NCBI GenBank assembly: GCA_963675665.1
Contig: OY776510.1
Coordinates: 608,001 to 672,000, forward strand
Length of the DNA stretch: 64,000 nt
Reading direction: 5' to 3'
Source of the DNA: Spirochaetia bacterium
GTDB lineage: Bacteria > Spirochaetota > Spirochaetia > UBA9216
In this document: piece after piece, positions 33,955 to 52,517 of the stretch
How the letters are laid out: each line of letters starts with the position of its first letter
How positions within the stretch are numbered: position 1 is the first letter of the stretch
The notes under the pieces: generated by a model
The model's input: only the letters and a program-made list of their open reading frames with translations
Databases searched by the model: none
What the model was told of the DNA's origin: nothing
Made by a program: the position numbers and the translations under genes

Positions 33955-34029
33955 TATTGTTTACATTTACTTCGATTTGCTCTAAGCTCTTCGGTTGGTG
34001 ATAAGCATAAATGGTAATTGGAGAATTTC

Positions 34030-35304
34030 ATGAATAAATATGACGTAATCATCGTCGGTTCGGGACCGGCCGGTCTGGGGGCCGCATTCCACCTGGCAAA
34101 AAAGAACGAGAAACTGAAAATTCTTATGCTGGAAAAGGAAAAGGTTTCCACCGGCGGACTTCGGAACGATTGTAAAATGAATTTCACCTTTCCCATAGGG
34201 TTTCCCCTCGAAAACTGGAACAGGGAGCAGGCCGAACATTACCTGGATGAAGTAATCAAAAAACTGAAACCGAATATGCTGGGCAAGAAAAACCTTTCCA
34301 CCTACTTTAAACGGGCACAAAACCTCGGAGTAGAGATGCTTGACATCAGGCAGACCCATCTGGGCACCGACGGTGGCCTGCAGCTTATAAAACAGCTCAC
34401 ATCGGAACTCGAACAGTTGGGAGTTGATATAAAACTTGAAACAGAGATGACCGATATCGATCCGTCTGGAAAAACAATTGTCACTGATCACGGGAATTTC
34501 GAATATGTAGACCTGATAATAGCGCCCGGACGCAAAGGTTTCCGTTTTCTTCAATCCGTTATGGACAAGCTTAAAGTCTCTTATATAGACCATATTGTCG
34601 ATATCGGCATCAGGATAGAAACAAGAATTGAAAATTACCCGATAGTCTCCGACTATTATGACCCCAAGTTTATTTTCCCCGATAAAGTACGAACGTTCTG
34701 CACAAACAGCGGCGCAGCCCACGTTGTTCGTGAGAAGTATATAACCGCATCCGGCAAACCTTATTTCAGCGTAAACGGCCATGCTTTTTCCAGCAACAAG
34801 GCTCCGAACGGCCTTGTAAATTTTGCCATGCTGAAAACGGTCACCTTTACCGAACCCCTTGCAAGCGGACAGGAGTTTGCTGAAAATCTGGGACTGCAGG
34901 CAATGCTGATGGGCGGAGGAAAACCCATAATGCAGCGGGTGGGAGATTTCAGGCTCGGTAAAAGATCAAAAGCCGAATCATTCAACGACGATCTTTACGA
35001 TTTTAAACCGACGCAGCCTGGATGTACCCCTGGAGACATCAGTCTTTCAATGCCGGCCAAAATTCTGAGGGGAATATGGAAATCGATGAAGGCGCTTGAC
35101 ACCATTATTCCCGGGGTCCTTCATCCGGGGACAATCATGTATTATCCCGAAATCAAGCTGTATGCCAATAAACCTGAATATCTCAACAGCAGTTTTAAGG
35201 CCTACGATAACATATACTTCGCCGGAGACGGGGCAGGCACCAGCCGCGGAATAACCGCAGCCTGGGCAAGCGGAATAAGGGCGGCGGAAGGAATTATCTG
35301 CTGA
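34030..35304 (+). CDS. NAD(P)/FAD-dependent oxidoreductase of unknown function
   Basis: IIVGSGPAG, HLGTD, APGR.G, VRTFCTN, VNGH, AGDGAG.SRG. Confidence 0.85.
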   Translation: MNKYDVIIVGSGPAGLGAAFHLAKKNEKLKILMLEKEKVSTGGLRNDCKMNFTFPIGFPLENWNREQAEHYLDEVIKKLKPNMLGKKNLSTYFKRAQNLGVEMLDIRQTHLGTDGGLQLIKQLTSELEQLGVDIKLETEMTDIDPSGKTIVTDHGNFEYVDLIIAPGRKGFRFLQSVMDKLKVSYIDHIVDIGIRIETRIENYPIVSDYYDPKFIFPDKVRTFCTNSGAAHVVREKYITASGKPYFSVNGHAFSSNKAPNGLVNFAMLKTVTFTEPLASGQEFAENLGLQAMLMGGGKPIMQRVGDFRLGKRSKAESFNDDLYDFKPTQPGCTPGDISLSMPAKILRGIWKSMKALDTIIPGVLHPGTIMYYPEIKLYANKPEYLNSSFKAYDNIYFAGDGAGTSRGITAAWASGIRAAEGIIC

Positions 35305-35345
35305 GCCTGAAAAGCTTAAATATTCAAAAATAAATATTAAAACTC

Positions 35346-35374
35346 TTGAATTATCACCCCGGCGGAATTAGATT
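35346..35374 (+). promoter_or_regulatory. Sigma70-type promoter of the putative small RNA
   Basis: TTGAAT-N17-TAGATT with an AT-rich tract upstream. Confidence 0.6.
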
Positions 35375-35380
35375 TAAAGC

Positions 35381-35506
35381 AGAAGTACATACAGTCTTCA
35401 GCGCAGGGAGAGCACCGATTTCGGATCATTCCGGTTGTTACCCGGAGGATCAGGTTAAACTCGTCGGTGGTAAATCCTCCAAATAGTCTCCCTGCGCGTT
35501 TTTTTT
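35381..35506 (+). ncRNA. Candidate structured small RNA or cis-regulatory leader (family not recognised)
   Basis: 11-bp closing stem GCGCAGGGAGA/TCTCCCTGCGC followed by T8; nested helices CACCGA/TCGGTG, GATC/GATC and TCCGG/CCGGA; promoter upstream; no ORF. Confidence 0.6.
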
Positions 35507-35549
35507 ATATTTTATTATTTTTCCGCCGGTTTTTTATTATATTAAAAAC

Positions 35550-37763
35550 ATGATTTTCAGACACCGATACAACATGCTCTTTGAATTCAGTGAACTGGAC
35601 TGGCTTTTTCATGATTCAGAGGATATTGAAACATTTTTAAAAAGAGTAATTGAATTAATATACAAACATATGAGCATAAGCGGATGTTCTGTCTACCTGC
35701 TTGACGAAAACTCCGATCAGCTTGTCTTTATGGCATCTGAAAAAACAGTTAACAAAGACAGCTCTGAAACTGACCGCCAGCCGCTTCATCTTAAAAAAGG
35801 CGATAGCCTGTGCGGAACAGCCGTTGAATCCGGAAGGATTCAATACGGTTCAAAACGAAGACTTACAATGGCCGTCCCGATTAAGCGCGGAAATATTCCG
35901 GTCGGCGCCCTGTTTCTGGAAAGAGTCAAGCGGTCGTTTAACAGGATCGATGAAGGAACGATAAGGGTATTAACCTCCCAGCTGGCGAACATTCTGGAAA
36001 ATGCAAGAATATTCTATACGGAGGCCATGAATACCAGCCTGGAACCCGGTGAAGGATCGCTGGAATTCAACACCCAGATGCTCCTTCAAGGAACAGGAGC
36101 CTCTCCGGGGCAGGCATTCGGAGAAAGCTTTATTCTCGACCGAAAGCGGAGTTTTACCGAGCTCAGACGCGTCAGGTTTGATCACATCTACACAAGCAAA
36201 GAACTGGAACAGGCTATCAGAAAAACCGAGAAACAGCTTCTTGATCTTCAGGAAGGTGTAGAAAAAAATCTGTCGGACAGTGCATCATTAATCTTCACAT
36301 CACATCTTATGATTCTGAAGGATCGAAGTTTTAACAATGAAATTAAAAACCGGATAAGCACCGGAATAAATCCCCCGACAGCACTATTGAACGTTGCAGA
36401 AAATTATATAAAAATCTTTATGGAGAGCGAGAATCCCTTTGTAAGAGAAAAGATCGAGGACATTGAAGATCTTGTTCAAAGAATCTTTTCCAACCTTCTT
36501 GGCGAAGAAACCGCTCCGGTAAATGCAAAGGGTAAAATTGTCATAACGAAGAAACTCTATCCGTCGGACATTCTGATGCTTGCAACCGAAAAGACTTCCG
36601 GCATTCTGATGGTATCCGGAGGGCTGACCGCCCACATCTCAATTCTGGCACAATCTCTCAAGTTGCCGCTTGTAATTGCAGATTTTCCGGATTTAATAAA
36701 AACAGACAGGCCTCTGCCGGTTGGAATTGACGGAGATTCAGGGAAAATCTGCATTAACCCTTCGCCGGAAATTATGAAGGATTTCAGAAATTTACAAAAC
36801 AGAAACTGGTCGAAAGAAGAAAGATTTCTGTCCGATGAAACCCGTACCCGTTGCGGGAAAAAAATCGGGCTGCTGACAAATATTAACCTGATACCGGACC
36901 TTGAAGAAGCTGTCAGATTAAACGCAGAAGGGATAGATCTTTACCGGACCGAGTTTCCATTTCTGCTTAGAAACAGCTTTCCGACCGAAGAGGAACAATT
37001 TTCAGTTTACAGGCAGATTATTGATCTTGCCGGAGACAGACCTGTAACATTCAGGACCCTGGACGTCGGCGGAGACAAGGTTTTATCCTACTATCGTGAT
37101 TATAACGAAGAAAATCCGTTTCTTGGTTTAAGATCGATTCGCTTCAGCCTTAAGAACCCGGCAATATTTCGTTCGCAAATTCGGGCCATTCTCCGGGCAG
37201 CAGGAAACCGGCGGATAAAACTTATGTTTCCGATGATTTCTACCATGGAAGAACTTAAAACGTCAAAAGAACTGGTCCTTCAGTCTTTTGAAGATCTTAA
37301 AAACAGCGGAACGGATGTTGTTATGCCGGAAATAGGCGCAATGGTGGAAATTCCGTCGCTGCTTGCAATACTTGATCATGTATGCACGGAAGTGGATTTT
37401 CTTTCCGTCGGTACAAACGATTTTATTCAGTATATGCTGGCAGTAGATCGAAATAATGAGAAGCTGAAAGATTATTATAATCCGCATAACCCGTCTGTTC
37501 TTCGGGGGCTGAAACATATTGCCGACGCAGCCGGAAGGCATAAGGTTGAACTGACATTATGCGGAGAGATGGCGCACCAGAAAGAATATATCCCGTTCCT
37601 GCTGGGCATCGGAATTGAAAACCTGAGCGTCTCAACAAGTTTTCTTTATGAAACCCAGAAGGCTATCGCAGAAATCGGGATGGTTGAAGCAAAAGCATTG
37701 GCTGATGAGATCCTGAACCACAGTTCCGTTAATGAGATTGAGCGATCCCTGGGAATCATATAA
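35550..37763 (+). CDS. ptsP: GAF-domain PEP-protein phosphotransferase (EI-Ntr-like)
   Basis: N-terminal GAF, phospho-His GGLTAHISIL, LYRTEF, RTLDVGGDK, NPFLGLRSIR, SVGTNDF.QY, CGEMA. Confidence 0.92.
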   Translation: MIFRHRYNMLFEFSELDWLFHDSEDIETFLKRVIELIYKHMSISGCSVYLLDENSDQLVFMASEKTVNKDSSETDRQPLHLKKGDSLCGTAVESGRIQYGSKRRLTMAVPIKRGNIPVGALFLERVKRSFNRIDEGTIRVLTSQLANILENARIFYTEAMNTSLEPGEGSLEFNTQMLLQGTGASPGQAFGESFILDRKRSFTELRRVRFDHIYTSKELEQAIRKTEKQLLDLQEGVEKNLSDSASLIFTSHLMILKDRSFNNEIKNRISTGINPPTALLNVAENYIKIFMESENPFVREKIEDIEDLVQRIFSNLLGEETAPVNAKGKIVITKKLYPSDILMLATEKTSGILMVSGGLTAHISILAQSLKLPLVIADFPDLIKTDRPLPVGIDGDSGKICINPSPEIMKDFRNLQNRNWSKEERFLSDETRTRCGKKIGLLTNINLIPDLEEAVRLNAEGIDLYRTEFPFLLRNSFPTEEEQFSVYRQIIDLAGDRPVTFRTLDVGGDKVLSYYRDYNEENPFLGLRSIRFSLKNPAIFRSQIRAILRAAGNRRIKLMFPMISTMEELKTSKELVLQSFEDLKNSGTDVVMPEIGAMVEIPSLLAILDHVCTEVDFLSVGTNDFIQYMLAVDRNNEKLKDYYNPHNPSVLRGLKHIADAAGRHKVELTLCGEMAHQKEYIPFLLGIGIENLSVSTSFLYETQKAIAEIGMVEAKALADEILNHSSVNEIERSLGII

Positions 37764-50066: not shown

Positions 50067-52517
50067 CTATTTTTTTATCAGTATAAACTCTACCCTCCGG
50101 TTTTTCCACCTGTTTGTAATATCACTGTGCGGAACTACCGGCCTGTTACCGCCGTATCCCATGGTTGTAAGTCTTGTTGCATTGATTCCCCTTGCAATAA
50201 GAGCTTCCTTTATTACTTCAGCTCGTTCTACAGAGAGCGGCAGGAGGACTTCGTCCTGTTCCGTTTGAAGCCTGGCGGGATTGTCCCAGTAAACCCTGGC
50301 TGTATGCCCTTCAAGACGAATACGGTATTGGCTGTATTTCTTCAGAATCTCGGCAAGCCTGTCAAGTGTGGCAAGATTTTTCATCTTCTCTTCCGGATCA
50401 ACATTCAGATAATCCGCCTTGTTGGGTACAAAGTAAATGCTTGATATTATTATCTTTAAATTCTCACCATCCTTCATAACCAGAATATCTATGGGAACAG
50501 TGGTTTCGGCCACAGTTGAATTTCCCATTTTATCGGTTACGGTATACTGAATTGAATAATCAGACGCAGATTGAACCAGCTCGTTTTTATCGGAGAGGCC
50601 GTTCCATTTTATGACATCCCTTGATTCGCCGGTCCCTGCAAAAGTACGAAAGTTGTTTCCGGCAGGATCGATTATCCTGATTTTCCAGAAATCTATTCCG
50701 GAGACGTCTTTTGCCGTCGCTTTAATACTCAGAATATCATCAACACCGTCCTGATCCGGGGAGAAAATTGCAGGAGAAACCGATACTTCAGCTTCCGGCC
50801 CGGTAATATCCACTCTGAAGGTTTTTTCCGTTATTGAAGTAATATAGTTTCCTTTAAGATACTCAACATTTAACCGGGCTGTATATTCATCCTCCCGGAT
50901 AATTCCTTTTTCGTCTACACCGTCCCAATCAATACGGGAAGGAAGCGCACTGGTAATTTCATTTGAACCAAATGATTTCGTCAGATCTCCGTTATGGTTT
51001 ATAATCTCCAGACCCCAGGTCCCAATTTCTTCAGGCATATTGGTAGTGAGATCAAATGATATAAAGTCGTTCATACCGTCGCCGTCGGGAGAAGCACCCT
51101 TGTTATTCGAAGAAATCCTGACCACGGGAATTCTTGTATCTACCCTGATACTCTTCAGCTCTTTCACAGTCTGATTATCTGCTTTGTCGGTGCATTCAAT
51201 CCGATAACTGTAAGTACCGTCCGGAACCTTAATCCCGTTACTGTCCAAAGCGTTCCATTCAAACTGAGATGCCCGGCCGGTCCAGGTTTGTTTTCTTATT
51301 TCATTTCCCGAATTATTAAGAATTGATGCAGACCACAGATCTTCCTGGCTTGTACTCTGGTTAATTTTCAGCGTGTCGCGTCTTCCGTCTCCGTCAGGTG
51401 AAAATAAAAGGTAAGCTGCAGATAAATAAACAAGCGGCGGGGCATTGTCTATTTCGAAAAGCTGTGACACATTCTCCGGCATACTACCGTTTTTAAAAGT
51501 AAGGCTGATATGCCCTTTATAGAAGCCGTCGGGAAGGATTCTGCCGTTATTATCTTTACCGTCAAAAAGGATTGACGCTGGAAGAGATTTTTCACCGCTA
51601 TAGCTTCTGACCGTTTCGCCTTTACTGTTATGGATCGAAACAGTCCATGAGGTTAAATCCGTTGTGCTTACTGCATCAGTTGTCAGCAACAGGGTATCTT
51701 TCTTTCCGTCGTTATTCGGCGAAAATGATTCAAGATTCCTGCTGATTGAAACCGGGGACCTTTCGGTATTCACGGTTATTCCATCCAGACTGAAAACAGA
51801 CTTGTTTGAAGCCTCGTCAGTACTGCTGATAATATAGGAATACTCGCCGTCCGGAACATATTTCTCGCTTGTGTCTTTACCGTTCCAGACAAAATCGGTG
51901 GCTATTCCTTTCCAAACAAAAGTCTTAACGCTTGTTCCGGCGCTGTTGATTATTTTGCCTTCCCATTTAGCTTCGATACTTGAAAACCGCTGAAATATTC
52001 TAACTGTATCCAGCCGGCCGTCGCCATCGGGAGAAAATAACGGATATGCAGCGGAAATTTCAACTGAAGGCGCGGTATTGTCTATTATCACCATGAAGGA
52101 TGGAGATTTGTAAGATTGTTCATTTCCGTAGAAAATATCGATATGATAGAAATAATCTCCGTCCGGCAGATATTTTCCATTTTGATCTACCCCGGCCCAG
52201 CTGAAACTTTCGGGTATTTTCACTCCGGGTTTTTTCTTTCTGGCTGATACTTCACCCTGTTTGTAGACGGTCTTTCCGGTCTGATCTTCAATGATGATCC
52301 TGTATTCTGAAATTACAAGATCCTTATAGGGCGGGAGGCTGAACTCTACCTTAAGTTCATCATTAAGCCCGTCCTGATTAACTGGCGAAATCCATGTAAC
52401 ATCTTTAGGCAGATTTTCCAGGTCTATTTGACCTTCAAACGTTGCGCAGCCGGCAATTACTGATATTGCAGTTATTGCAACCATAAATTTCAGATATTTT
52501 CTTAGTCTATTAGTCAT
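50067..52517 (-). CDS. OmpA-family lipoprotein with tandem FlgD-like Ig repeats
   Basis: Lipobox IAGC; six S-P-[DN]-x-DG-x-x-D-type repeats with W.G.D..G...DG.Y segments; C-terminal OmpA domain (EGHT, LS.ERA, NRRVEF); GGAGG SD. Confidence 0.88.
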   Translation of the reverse strand: MTNRLRKYLKFMVAITAISVIAGCATFEGQIDLENLPKDVTWISPVNQDGLNDELKVEFSLPPYKDLVISEYRIIIEDQTGKTVYKQGEVSARKKKPGVKIPESFSWAGVDQNGKYLPDGDYFYHIDIFYGNEQSYKSPSFMVIIDNTAPSVEISAAYPLFSPDGDGRLDTVRIFQRFSSIEAKWEGKIINSAGTSVKTFVWKGIATDFVWNGKDTSEKYVPDGEYSYIISSTDEASNKSVFSLDGITVNTERSPVSISRNLESFSPNNDGKKDTLLLTTDAVSTTDLTSWTVSIHNSKGETVRSYSGEKSLPASILFDGKDNNGRILPDGFYKGHISLTFKNGSMPENVSQLFEIDNAPPLVYLSAAYLLFSPDGDGRRDTLKINQSTSQEDLWSASILNNSGNEIRKQTWTGRASQFEWNALDSNGIKVPDGTYSYRIECTDKADNQTVKELKSIRVDTRIPVVRISSNNKGASPDGDGMNDFISFDLTTNMPEEIGTWGLEIINHNGDLTKSFGSNEITSALPSRIDWDGVDEKGIIREDEYTARLNVEYLKGNYITSITEKTFRVDITGPEAEVSVSPAIFSPDQDGVDDILSIKATAKDVSGIDFWKIRIIDPAGNNFRTFAGTGESRDVIKWNGLSDKNELVQSASDYSIQYTVTDKMGNSTVAETTVPIDILVMKDGENLKIIISSIYFVPNKADYLNVDPEEKMKNLATLDRLAEILKKYSQYRIRLEGHTARVYWDNPARLQTEQDEVLLPLSVERAEVIKEALIARGINATRLTTMGYGGNRPVVPHSDITNRWKNRRVEFILIKK

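Follow-up and report, generated by a model that had tools for sequence, protein, structure and literature searches.

In the Firmicutes, C-rich-seed small RNAs (sRNAs) such as RoxS/RsaE, and likewise the hairpin loops of RNAIII, pair a C/U-rich unpaired motif with G-rich ribosome-binding sites without Hfq, and their seeds read CCCC or UCCC and lie in hairpin loops or linkers. To our knowledge, small-RNA regulation in free-living spirochaetes is almost unexplored. Here we examined a stretch of 64,000 nucleotides (nt) from a Spirochaetia bacterium (GenBank assembly GCA_963675665.1, contig OY776510.1, positions 608,001 to 672,000; hereafter the window), in which an initial annotation, made without database searches, had pointed to an orphan structured RNA at 35346-35510, between a gene for a FAD-dependent oxidoreductase (the FAD gene) and ptsP, the gene for a GAF-domain enzyme I. 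The source genome (G000) comprises 5.15 Mb in a single contig.

Among described systems the nearest parallel is NfeR1/alpha-r14 of the alpha-rhizobia. NfeR1 is reported to be a trans-acting, Hfq-independent sRNA with its own promoter, in which ultraconserved anti-Shine-Dalgarno (anti-SD) motifs stand in unpaired regions and the stem sequences vary; each of its three hairpins carries CCUCCUCCC in an unpaired region, and it occludes the ribosome-binding sites of transporter and nitrogen-regulation mRNAs (PMC10746234). Like NfeR1, the spirochaete RNA has its own predicted promoter and an invariant unpaired anti-SD motif, and Hfq was not found in the source genome by Pfam search, which fits the Hfq-independence reported for NfeR1. 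Unlike NfeR1 with its three hairpins, the spirochaete RNA has a single UCCUCC placed in the 3' internal loop of its own terminator hairpin. It also belongs to another phylum and shows no sequence or covariance-model similarity to NfeR1 (at E <= 10, Rfam returned nothing beyond noise), and membership in alpha-r14/NfeR1 is excluded by architecture and by Rfam. With RoxS/RsaE and RNAIII it shares a short C/U-rich unpaired motif, but the place and the letters of the seed differ from those generally described; the RsaE and RNAIII families did not appear in the Rfam scan of the region, and relation by descent is not suggested.

Very probably, the stretch flagged in the initial annotation is a genuine gene for a small non-coding RNA, present in one copy. 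We consider it likely that it encodes an independently transcribed sRNA and, with moderate confidence, we read this RNA as a trans-acting anti-SD sRNA that would work without Hfq. A sigma-70-type promoter, TTGAAT-N17-TAGATT, would start a transcript of about 126 nt, and an 11-base-pair (bp) G+C-rich stem followed by eight U residues would end it. This terminator stem would enclose the whole body of the RNA, namely an inner stem (ACCGA/UCGGU), a variable hairpin that can be dispensed with and, on the 3' side, a 17-nt loop that exposes an unpaired UCCUCC, the complement of a GGAGGA ribosome-binding site. Acting in trans, the open UCCUCC, perhaps assisted by the C/U-rich 5' tail, would then keep ribosomes from entering certain mRNAs by pairing with their Shine-Dalgarno (SD) regions, and repression would proceed without Hfq because the source genome has no match to it. 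The initial annotation had offered a trans-acting anti-SD sRNA as one of two possibilities; promoter, terminator, an unpaired UCCUCC in six of six homologs, single copy and absence from Rfam all agree with it, and it is from these features that we infer the fit. The RNA represents a new family of an already known and ordinary kind of regulator, and is dispensable in some species.

The promoter and all stem coordinates given in the initial annotation were correct when the sequence was read again and searched for inverted repeats (Table 1), and its GC-rich island in an AT-rich gap was borne out by a G+C content of 0.48-0.58 within the RNA versus 0.16-0.32 in the flanks. The minimum-free-energy fold gave the rod that had been drawn, reproduced the inner hairpin (35424-35427 with 35448-35451, and 35430-35434 with 35442-35446) and left the 17-nt 3' bulge open as proposed. 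Its energy was -44.2 kcal/mol (z = -4.3), and none of 200 shuffled sequences folded as well. The opposite strand folds as well (z = -5.3), so the strand is not set by energy, and its assignment rests on the promoter, the T-run and the G-U pairs found in relatives.

Homologs were sought by BLAST and with a covariance model built from five sequences (R1) in a comparison set of 11 genomes of a small family or order within the Spirochaetia, the source genome included, which together represent five genera. R1 matched six of the 11: G000, G001, G002 and G003 of genus g1, and G008 and G010 of genus g4, the match in the window spanning 35388-35504 with 123.8 bits. Each of the six copies is flanked by the FAD gene and GAF-ptsP, none having moved away from its place upstream of ptsP. 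Remnants were observed at the same spot in two further g1 genomes, G004 (L014, about 1480-1640), which has kept only the 3' strand of the outer stem (P1) plus the T-run, and G005 (L070, 2150-2215), which has a short degenerate hairpin with neither UCCUCC nor promoter. The RNA gene has decayed twice, independently, in this genus. In G004 the retained 3' strand (TCTCCCTGCGC and T-run) could form 7 bp with GCGCAGG in the last part of the FAD gene, possibly restoring a terminator there. The other three family genomes (81-97% complete) gave no match to the RNA and, with the query used, none to GAF-ptsP.

Beyond this set, strong matches were confined to family f1 in a class sample of 151 genomes, with three weak matches (E 0.006-0.07; G078, G096, G034), of which the inspected one (G078) was ORF-like sequence (ORF, open reading frame) without a T-run. 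A phylum sample of 151 genomes gave one weak match, again in ORF-like sequence. A metagenome scan with the pattern TCGG..TCCTCC..CCCTGYGCRTTT returned 24 loci, none of which matched R1 at E <= 1, and these were taken as chance, the pattern being strict enough that real variants may have been missed. No such element was found upstream of the five GAF-ptsP genes outside the family by a model search with filters off. The RNA has a narrow distribution, having been found only in two genera of little-known spirochaetes.

The promoter is conserved as an architecture rather than as a sequence. A TTGAnn-N17-TAnnnn arrangement precedes the stem by 15-26 nt in six of six homologs and in neither remnant; the spacer sequence is variable, and the -10 elements of the homologs, at the same 17-nt spacing, read TAAATT, TAAGTT, TAAGTC or TAAAGT. 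Directly 5' of the outer stem, all homologs have a C/U-rich segment (CUUCAGC, CCUCCAGC or CCCCUGGC). Across the five distinct sequences, 96.4% of cells in the 17 pairs of P1 and the inner stem (P2) are paired, and sliding the pairing partners lowers this to 33-51%. Compensatory changes were observed in two of the 17 pairs: one P1 pair changes from G-C to A-U in two sequences, and one pair of P2, whose ACCGA/UCGGU core is kept in all homologs, is compensated in G002. A further P1 pair is G-U in genus g4 (G008/G010), which fits the plus strand only. Covariation support for P1 and P2 is modest.

Within the loop, UCCUCC is invariant in all six homologs, and the flanks differ between species. Its mean unpaired probability is 0.77-0.97 in five of the six and 0.41 in G003. 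The inner hairpin between the P2 strands differs between genera and is absent from G002, an 88-nt minimal form with only promoter, P1, P2, UCCUCC loop and U-run. Two close strain variants are found in public contigs, one of them the spanning X4 contig. The strain differences listed within the RNA (35421, 35427, 35428, 35445, 35451 and 35452) all fall in the variable hairpin, and the X4 contig has two further differences beyond those listed. Complementarity between GGAGGAT (35444-35450) and ATCCTCC (35474-35480), on which the initial annotation had based a second conformation, does exist, but not as a conserved switch. The 'switchable fold' is a peculiarity of this genome, because the GGAGG partner is present in only one of the six homologs and the change of 35445 from G to A in a close strain destroys the GGAGGAU segment.

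The absence of any match to the signal recognition particle (SRP) RNA, 6S RNA or other known families, judged by eye in the initial annotation, held in the database search. Rfam 15 gave no match at gathering score anywhere in the window, only noise over 35250-35600 (best E 0.51, 18.5 bits against a cut-off of 155), and none at E <= 1 for four homolog loci. Canonical SRP and 6S RNAs are present elsewhere in the source genome. A BLAST search against that genome found one full copy, the other 16 matches being 14-39 nt long with E >= 0.026, and R1 likewise found a single match. Full-text literature searches found neither this RNA nor any other sRNA adjoining ptsP described in a paper.

Table 1. 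Positions in the window of the predicted RNA, its parts and the neighbouring genes.
Feature	Position	Strand	Basis or remark
-35 element TTGAAT of sRNA promoter	35346..35351	+	Read in the sequence; TTGAnn in 6/6 RNA-bearing genomes, 0/2 remnants
-10 element TAGATT of sRNA promoter	35369..35374	+	17-nt spacer after TTGAAT
Predicted transcript, about 126 nt	35381..35506	+	Start put 7 nt after the -10 element, end at the U-run
Single-stranded 5' tail ending in C/U-rich UCUUCAGC	35381..35400	+	Homolog alignment
Outer stem P1, 5' strand GCGCAGGGAGA	35401..35411	+	100% complementary to 35487-35497 (11 bp perfect, inverted-repeat search)
Inner stem P2, 5' strand CACCGA	35413..35418	+	Inverted-repeat search; pairs with 35464-35469
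Variable hairpin domain, including GGAGGAU 35444-35450	35419..35463	+	Differs in sequence and length between genera
Inner stem P2, 3' strand TCGGTG	35464..35469	+	Inverted-repeat search
17-nt 3' internal loop with invariant UCCUCC (35475-35480), proposed seed	35470..35486	+	Unpaired in the fold
Outer stem P1, 3' strand TCTCCCTGCGC	35487..35497	+	Persists with the T-run even in the G004 remnant
U8 tract, with P1 the predicted intrinsic terminator	35499..35506	+	G precedes T8; T-run after P1 in all homologs
FAD-dependent oxidoreductase gene, upstream	34030..35304	+	Pfam Pyr_redox_2, DAO, HI0933_like; ATG at 34030 after GGAGA
Putative leaderless-type ptsP promoter and start, TATATT-N6-ATG	35538..35552	+	Context, outside the RNA
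GAF-domain enzyme I, ptsP, EI-Ntr type, downstream	35550..37763	+	Pfam GAF, PEP-utilisers_N, PEP-utilizers, PEP-utilizers_C

The possible targets of the loop were examined through the SD regions of the source genome. SD-like 4-mers show a strong peak at 5-9 nt upstream of ATG start codons, indicating that SD-led translation is common, and the 16S rRNA ends in GGAUCACCUCCUUUCU; a free UCCUCC therefore has many possible partners. SD sites were taken to be GGAGG motifs upstream of a start codon that opens an ORF of 80 codons or more (n = 1013). The complement of the loop is matched over at least 9 nt by 53 of these, including the two matches cited in the initial annotation, which are real SD regions upstream of a Peripla_BP_4 binding-protein gene and an OmpA/CHU_C gene. 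Extended SD complementarity exceeded that of seeds with uniform-random flanks (about 2-3% of controls reached it) and weakly exceeded that of shuffles of the loop's own flanks (3-10%), with no excess over A/T-flanked seeds (27-53%). The SD region of the FAD gene showed no consistent extended pairing with the RNA, and a GATase1-like candidate target had an ortholog in only one of five relatives. No specific target can be named, and the conserved seed is the anti-SD core.

A number of observations weigh against the RNA being an independently transcribed anti-SD sRNA. The A/T-flanked control seeds had a mean of 41.9 sites matched over at least 9 nt, and 27% of them reached 53, so the two matches cited earlier, real as they are, do not go beyond chance. 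The best match in the genome (13 nt) lies in a gene for a xanthine/uracil permease, and 43% of the A/T-flanked controls reach that length. When co-variation across five relatives was followed for this candidate, its 5' untranslated region (UTR) was identical around the SD in all five, including G004, which lacks the RNA, and the match shrank to 6-8 nt in G008 and G002, which have different seed flanks; there was no co-variation. The RNA is also dispensable in the species of G004 and G005, since it has decayed there. It always stands directly upstream of ptsP and was found only in genomes with GAF-ptsP, and a cis element would look alike. Covariation is thin, 11 of the 17 pairs never varying among only five distinct sequences. 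The promoter in the window agrees with the consensus at eight of 12 positions, and none of the listed sequencing runs in which this DNA occurs is on record as RNA. A simple promoter and terminator scan listed neither the promoter, because its threshold was nine matches, nor the terminator, because its loop limit was 8 nt and the enclosed 'loop' here measures 75 nt.

The sRNA family is cleanly bounded, and its minimal form is clear, consisting of a promoter, two stems, the UCCUCC loop and a terminator; the same genus offers two natural knock-outs. No new principle is involved, and the worth of the locus lies in its annotation and in a tractable test case.

Of the other explanations, the one that survives best, though we regard it as unlikely, assigns the element to the FAD gene, as part of its 3' UTR or as its intrinsic terminator in an elaborate form, with a fortuitous promoter and no regulatory role of its own. 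No other terminator stands in the window between the FAD stop codon (35304) and the element. A plain terminator, however, needs no invariant unpaired UCCUCC, no conserved inner stem and no 75-nt insert. The survivors in G004 and G005, a terminator-like stem strand and a T-run, are what a terminator would leave behind, and the loss in two species suggests that the inner parts are dispensable; but in G002 a separate A/T hairpin stands between the FAD gene and the promoter, and the -35 and -10 elements keep their fixed 17-nt spacing in six of six homologs despite a varying spacer sequence.

Somewhat less probable, and to be held doubtful, is an action in cis on ptsP. The element would be a leader or attenuator at which transcription stops at U8 and reads through in response to a signal (as a riboswitch or through a protein-dependent antiterminator) or, as a variant that we place within the same doubtful estimate, the ptsP promoter, which lies 30-50 nt downstream, would be disturbed whenever the upstream promoter fires. 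Position is what speaks for it: synteny is strict, with the six copies and both remnants directly upstream of ptsP; the terminator ends about 43 nt before the ptsP ATG; and the element co-occurs with GAF-ptsP, which is rare in the class, the three family genomes without a ptsP match also lacking a match to the RNA. The five GAF-ptsP genes outside the family nevertheless have no such element upstream. As to mechanism, no antiterminator pairing is conserved, GGAGGAU being confined to one homolog in six and lost in a close strain, and the whole inner hairpin is missing in G002. The whole fold lies within the terminator stem, so that nothing upstream competes with that stem. The conserved unpaired letters, only UCCUCC and its neighbours, are too few for a ligand pocket, and a search of the genome found no RNA-binding domain of the BglG/LicT type.

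The ptsP gene also appears to be served by a start signal of its own. TATATT stands exactly 6 nt before the ptsP ATG in eight of eight genomes, with a 6-nt spacer that varies in sequence, and both gene and signal persist in G004 and G005, where the promoter and body of the RNA are gone. A ptsP riboswitch is unlikely because ptsP keeps this TATATT-N6-ATG arrangement throughout, and the riboswitch or attenuator suggested in the initial annotation thus finds no conserved alternative fold, no hairpin in G002 and a downstream gene with its own signal. Among the 4391 ORFs of the source genome, TAnWWT peaks exactly 6 nt before ATG (141 against a background of about 60). This peak would be the signature of leaderless mRNAs, into which ptsP appears to fit. 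The peak suggests a class of roughly 80 or more leaderless-mRNA genes in the source genome. To call the cell rich in leaderless mRNAs, as the initial annotation had done, was an overstatement, since the -10 signal adds about 80 ORFs above background among 4391 and the SD peak is strong. GAF-ptsP was found in only 13 of 401 genomes sampled across the class, eight of these in the window's own family.

Quite improbable, in our view, is a decoy directed at a protein or at the ribosome, which would sequester a factor specific for the 3' end of 16S rRNA or act as a general SD sponge. A hairpin followed by single-stranded (G)AUCCUCC does resemble that end (helix 45, then GGAUCACCUCCUUUCU; GCGGCUGGAUCACCUCCUUUCU in the source genome), and the G002 form reads UCGGUUGAUCCUCCAUUUU directly after the P2 hairpin, but this resemblance, seen by eye, extends over no more than a stem motif of 4-5 bp and CCUCC, and the distance from stem to CCUCC ranges between 3 and 6 nt. 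In favour of a decoy, the conserved core coincides with the anti-SD and has freely varying flanks, and no specific target stands out. No candidate binding protein was identified, however, and an RNA expressed from one gene copy under a weak promoter would hardly be able to titrate partners on the scale of the ribosome.

The least probable reading, very much a long shot, makes the RNA a dedicated partner of the GAF-type enzyme I (PtsP) module through which the sensing of nitrogen and phosphoenolpyruvate (PEP) would shift translation globally between the SD-dependent and the leaderless mode: as the RNA was found only with the rare ptsP and, wherever found, 20-50 nt upstream of a leaderless-looking ptsP start, its loop could damp SD-led mRNAs and spare ptsP, and ptsP could also be tuned by the RNA being transcribed and terminated so close to the ptsP promoter.

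Four further candidates were rejected. A dispersed repeat of the kind of a miniature inverted-repeat transposable element (MITE) or a repetitive extragenic palindrome (REP), which the initial annotation had named as grounds for abandoning its RNA, was ruled out because the RNA is single-copy by both BLAST and R1. A small-protein gene was ruled out by inspection of the RNA, which has no AUG, and by homolog lengths of 126, 114, 121, 161 and 88 nt, which do not preserve a reading frame. CsrA is present in the source genome, but a CsrA sponge was ruled out, the conserved GGA being paired within the outer stem. A ribonucleic antiterminator (RAT) site for PRD-type (BglG/LicT) antiterminators was dismissed because PF03123 (CAT_RBD) was not found in the source genome, in a search in which control genomes scored. 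A UUGUUAC...CAGG segment, which we take by eye to be RAT-like, belongs to the variable hairpin and is not conserved among the homologs.

Other loci of the source genome were compared with the RNA. At G000:C1:2957583-2957617, 35 nt inside a 521-codon ORF are 79% complementary to 35447-35485 of the RNA (E = 0.026), which is probably chance because the non-conserved hairpin is involved. A sibling search for a long-range terminator stem with CCTCC in its 3' loop found, besides the RNA itself, only G000:C1:503594-503702, where a 9-bp long-range stem encloses a region with CCTCC among its final 30 nt and is followed by a T-run. CCUCC motifs are also present at G000:C1:3814261-3814440 and 3193156-3193376, in sequences and folds unrelated to the RNA, with no match by BLAST or R1. 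Together with the RNA, these two candidate loci suggest that the masking of ribosome-binding sites by Hfq-independent sRNAs is common in the clade.

The xanthine/uracil permease (G000:C1:3266660-3266745; L082-L086) is 89-94% identical in the five relatives, compared with 57-73% for PtsP. Its 5' UTR is almost invariant, with a CAGAAT...ATTCTG hairpin, a U-run and then TTTTGGAGGATTTATG, and could be a transcription attenuator, or the gene could have spread recently. Two paralogous large surface proteins are encoded on the minus strand at 50070-52517 of the window and at G000:C1:352160-354643, with FlgD_ig, CHU_C and Big domains and, in one of them, OmpA; their SD regions match the loop over 9 nt and 11 nt. 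The FAD gene has a promoter of the same local style as that of the sRNA, T(A/T)GACA-N17-TAAGCT (33960-34030 in the window), in G000, G001, G003 and G002. A related -10 element of the FAD gene, TAATCT or TAAGCT, was observed in G008, G010 and G005, which hints that -10 elements of the TAAGnT type may be typical of the clade.

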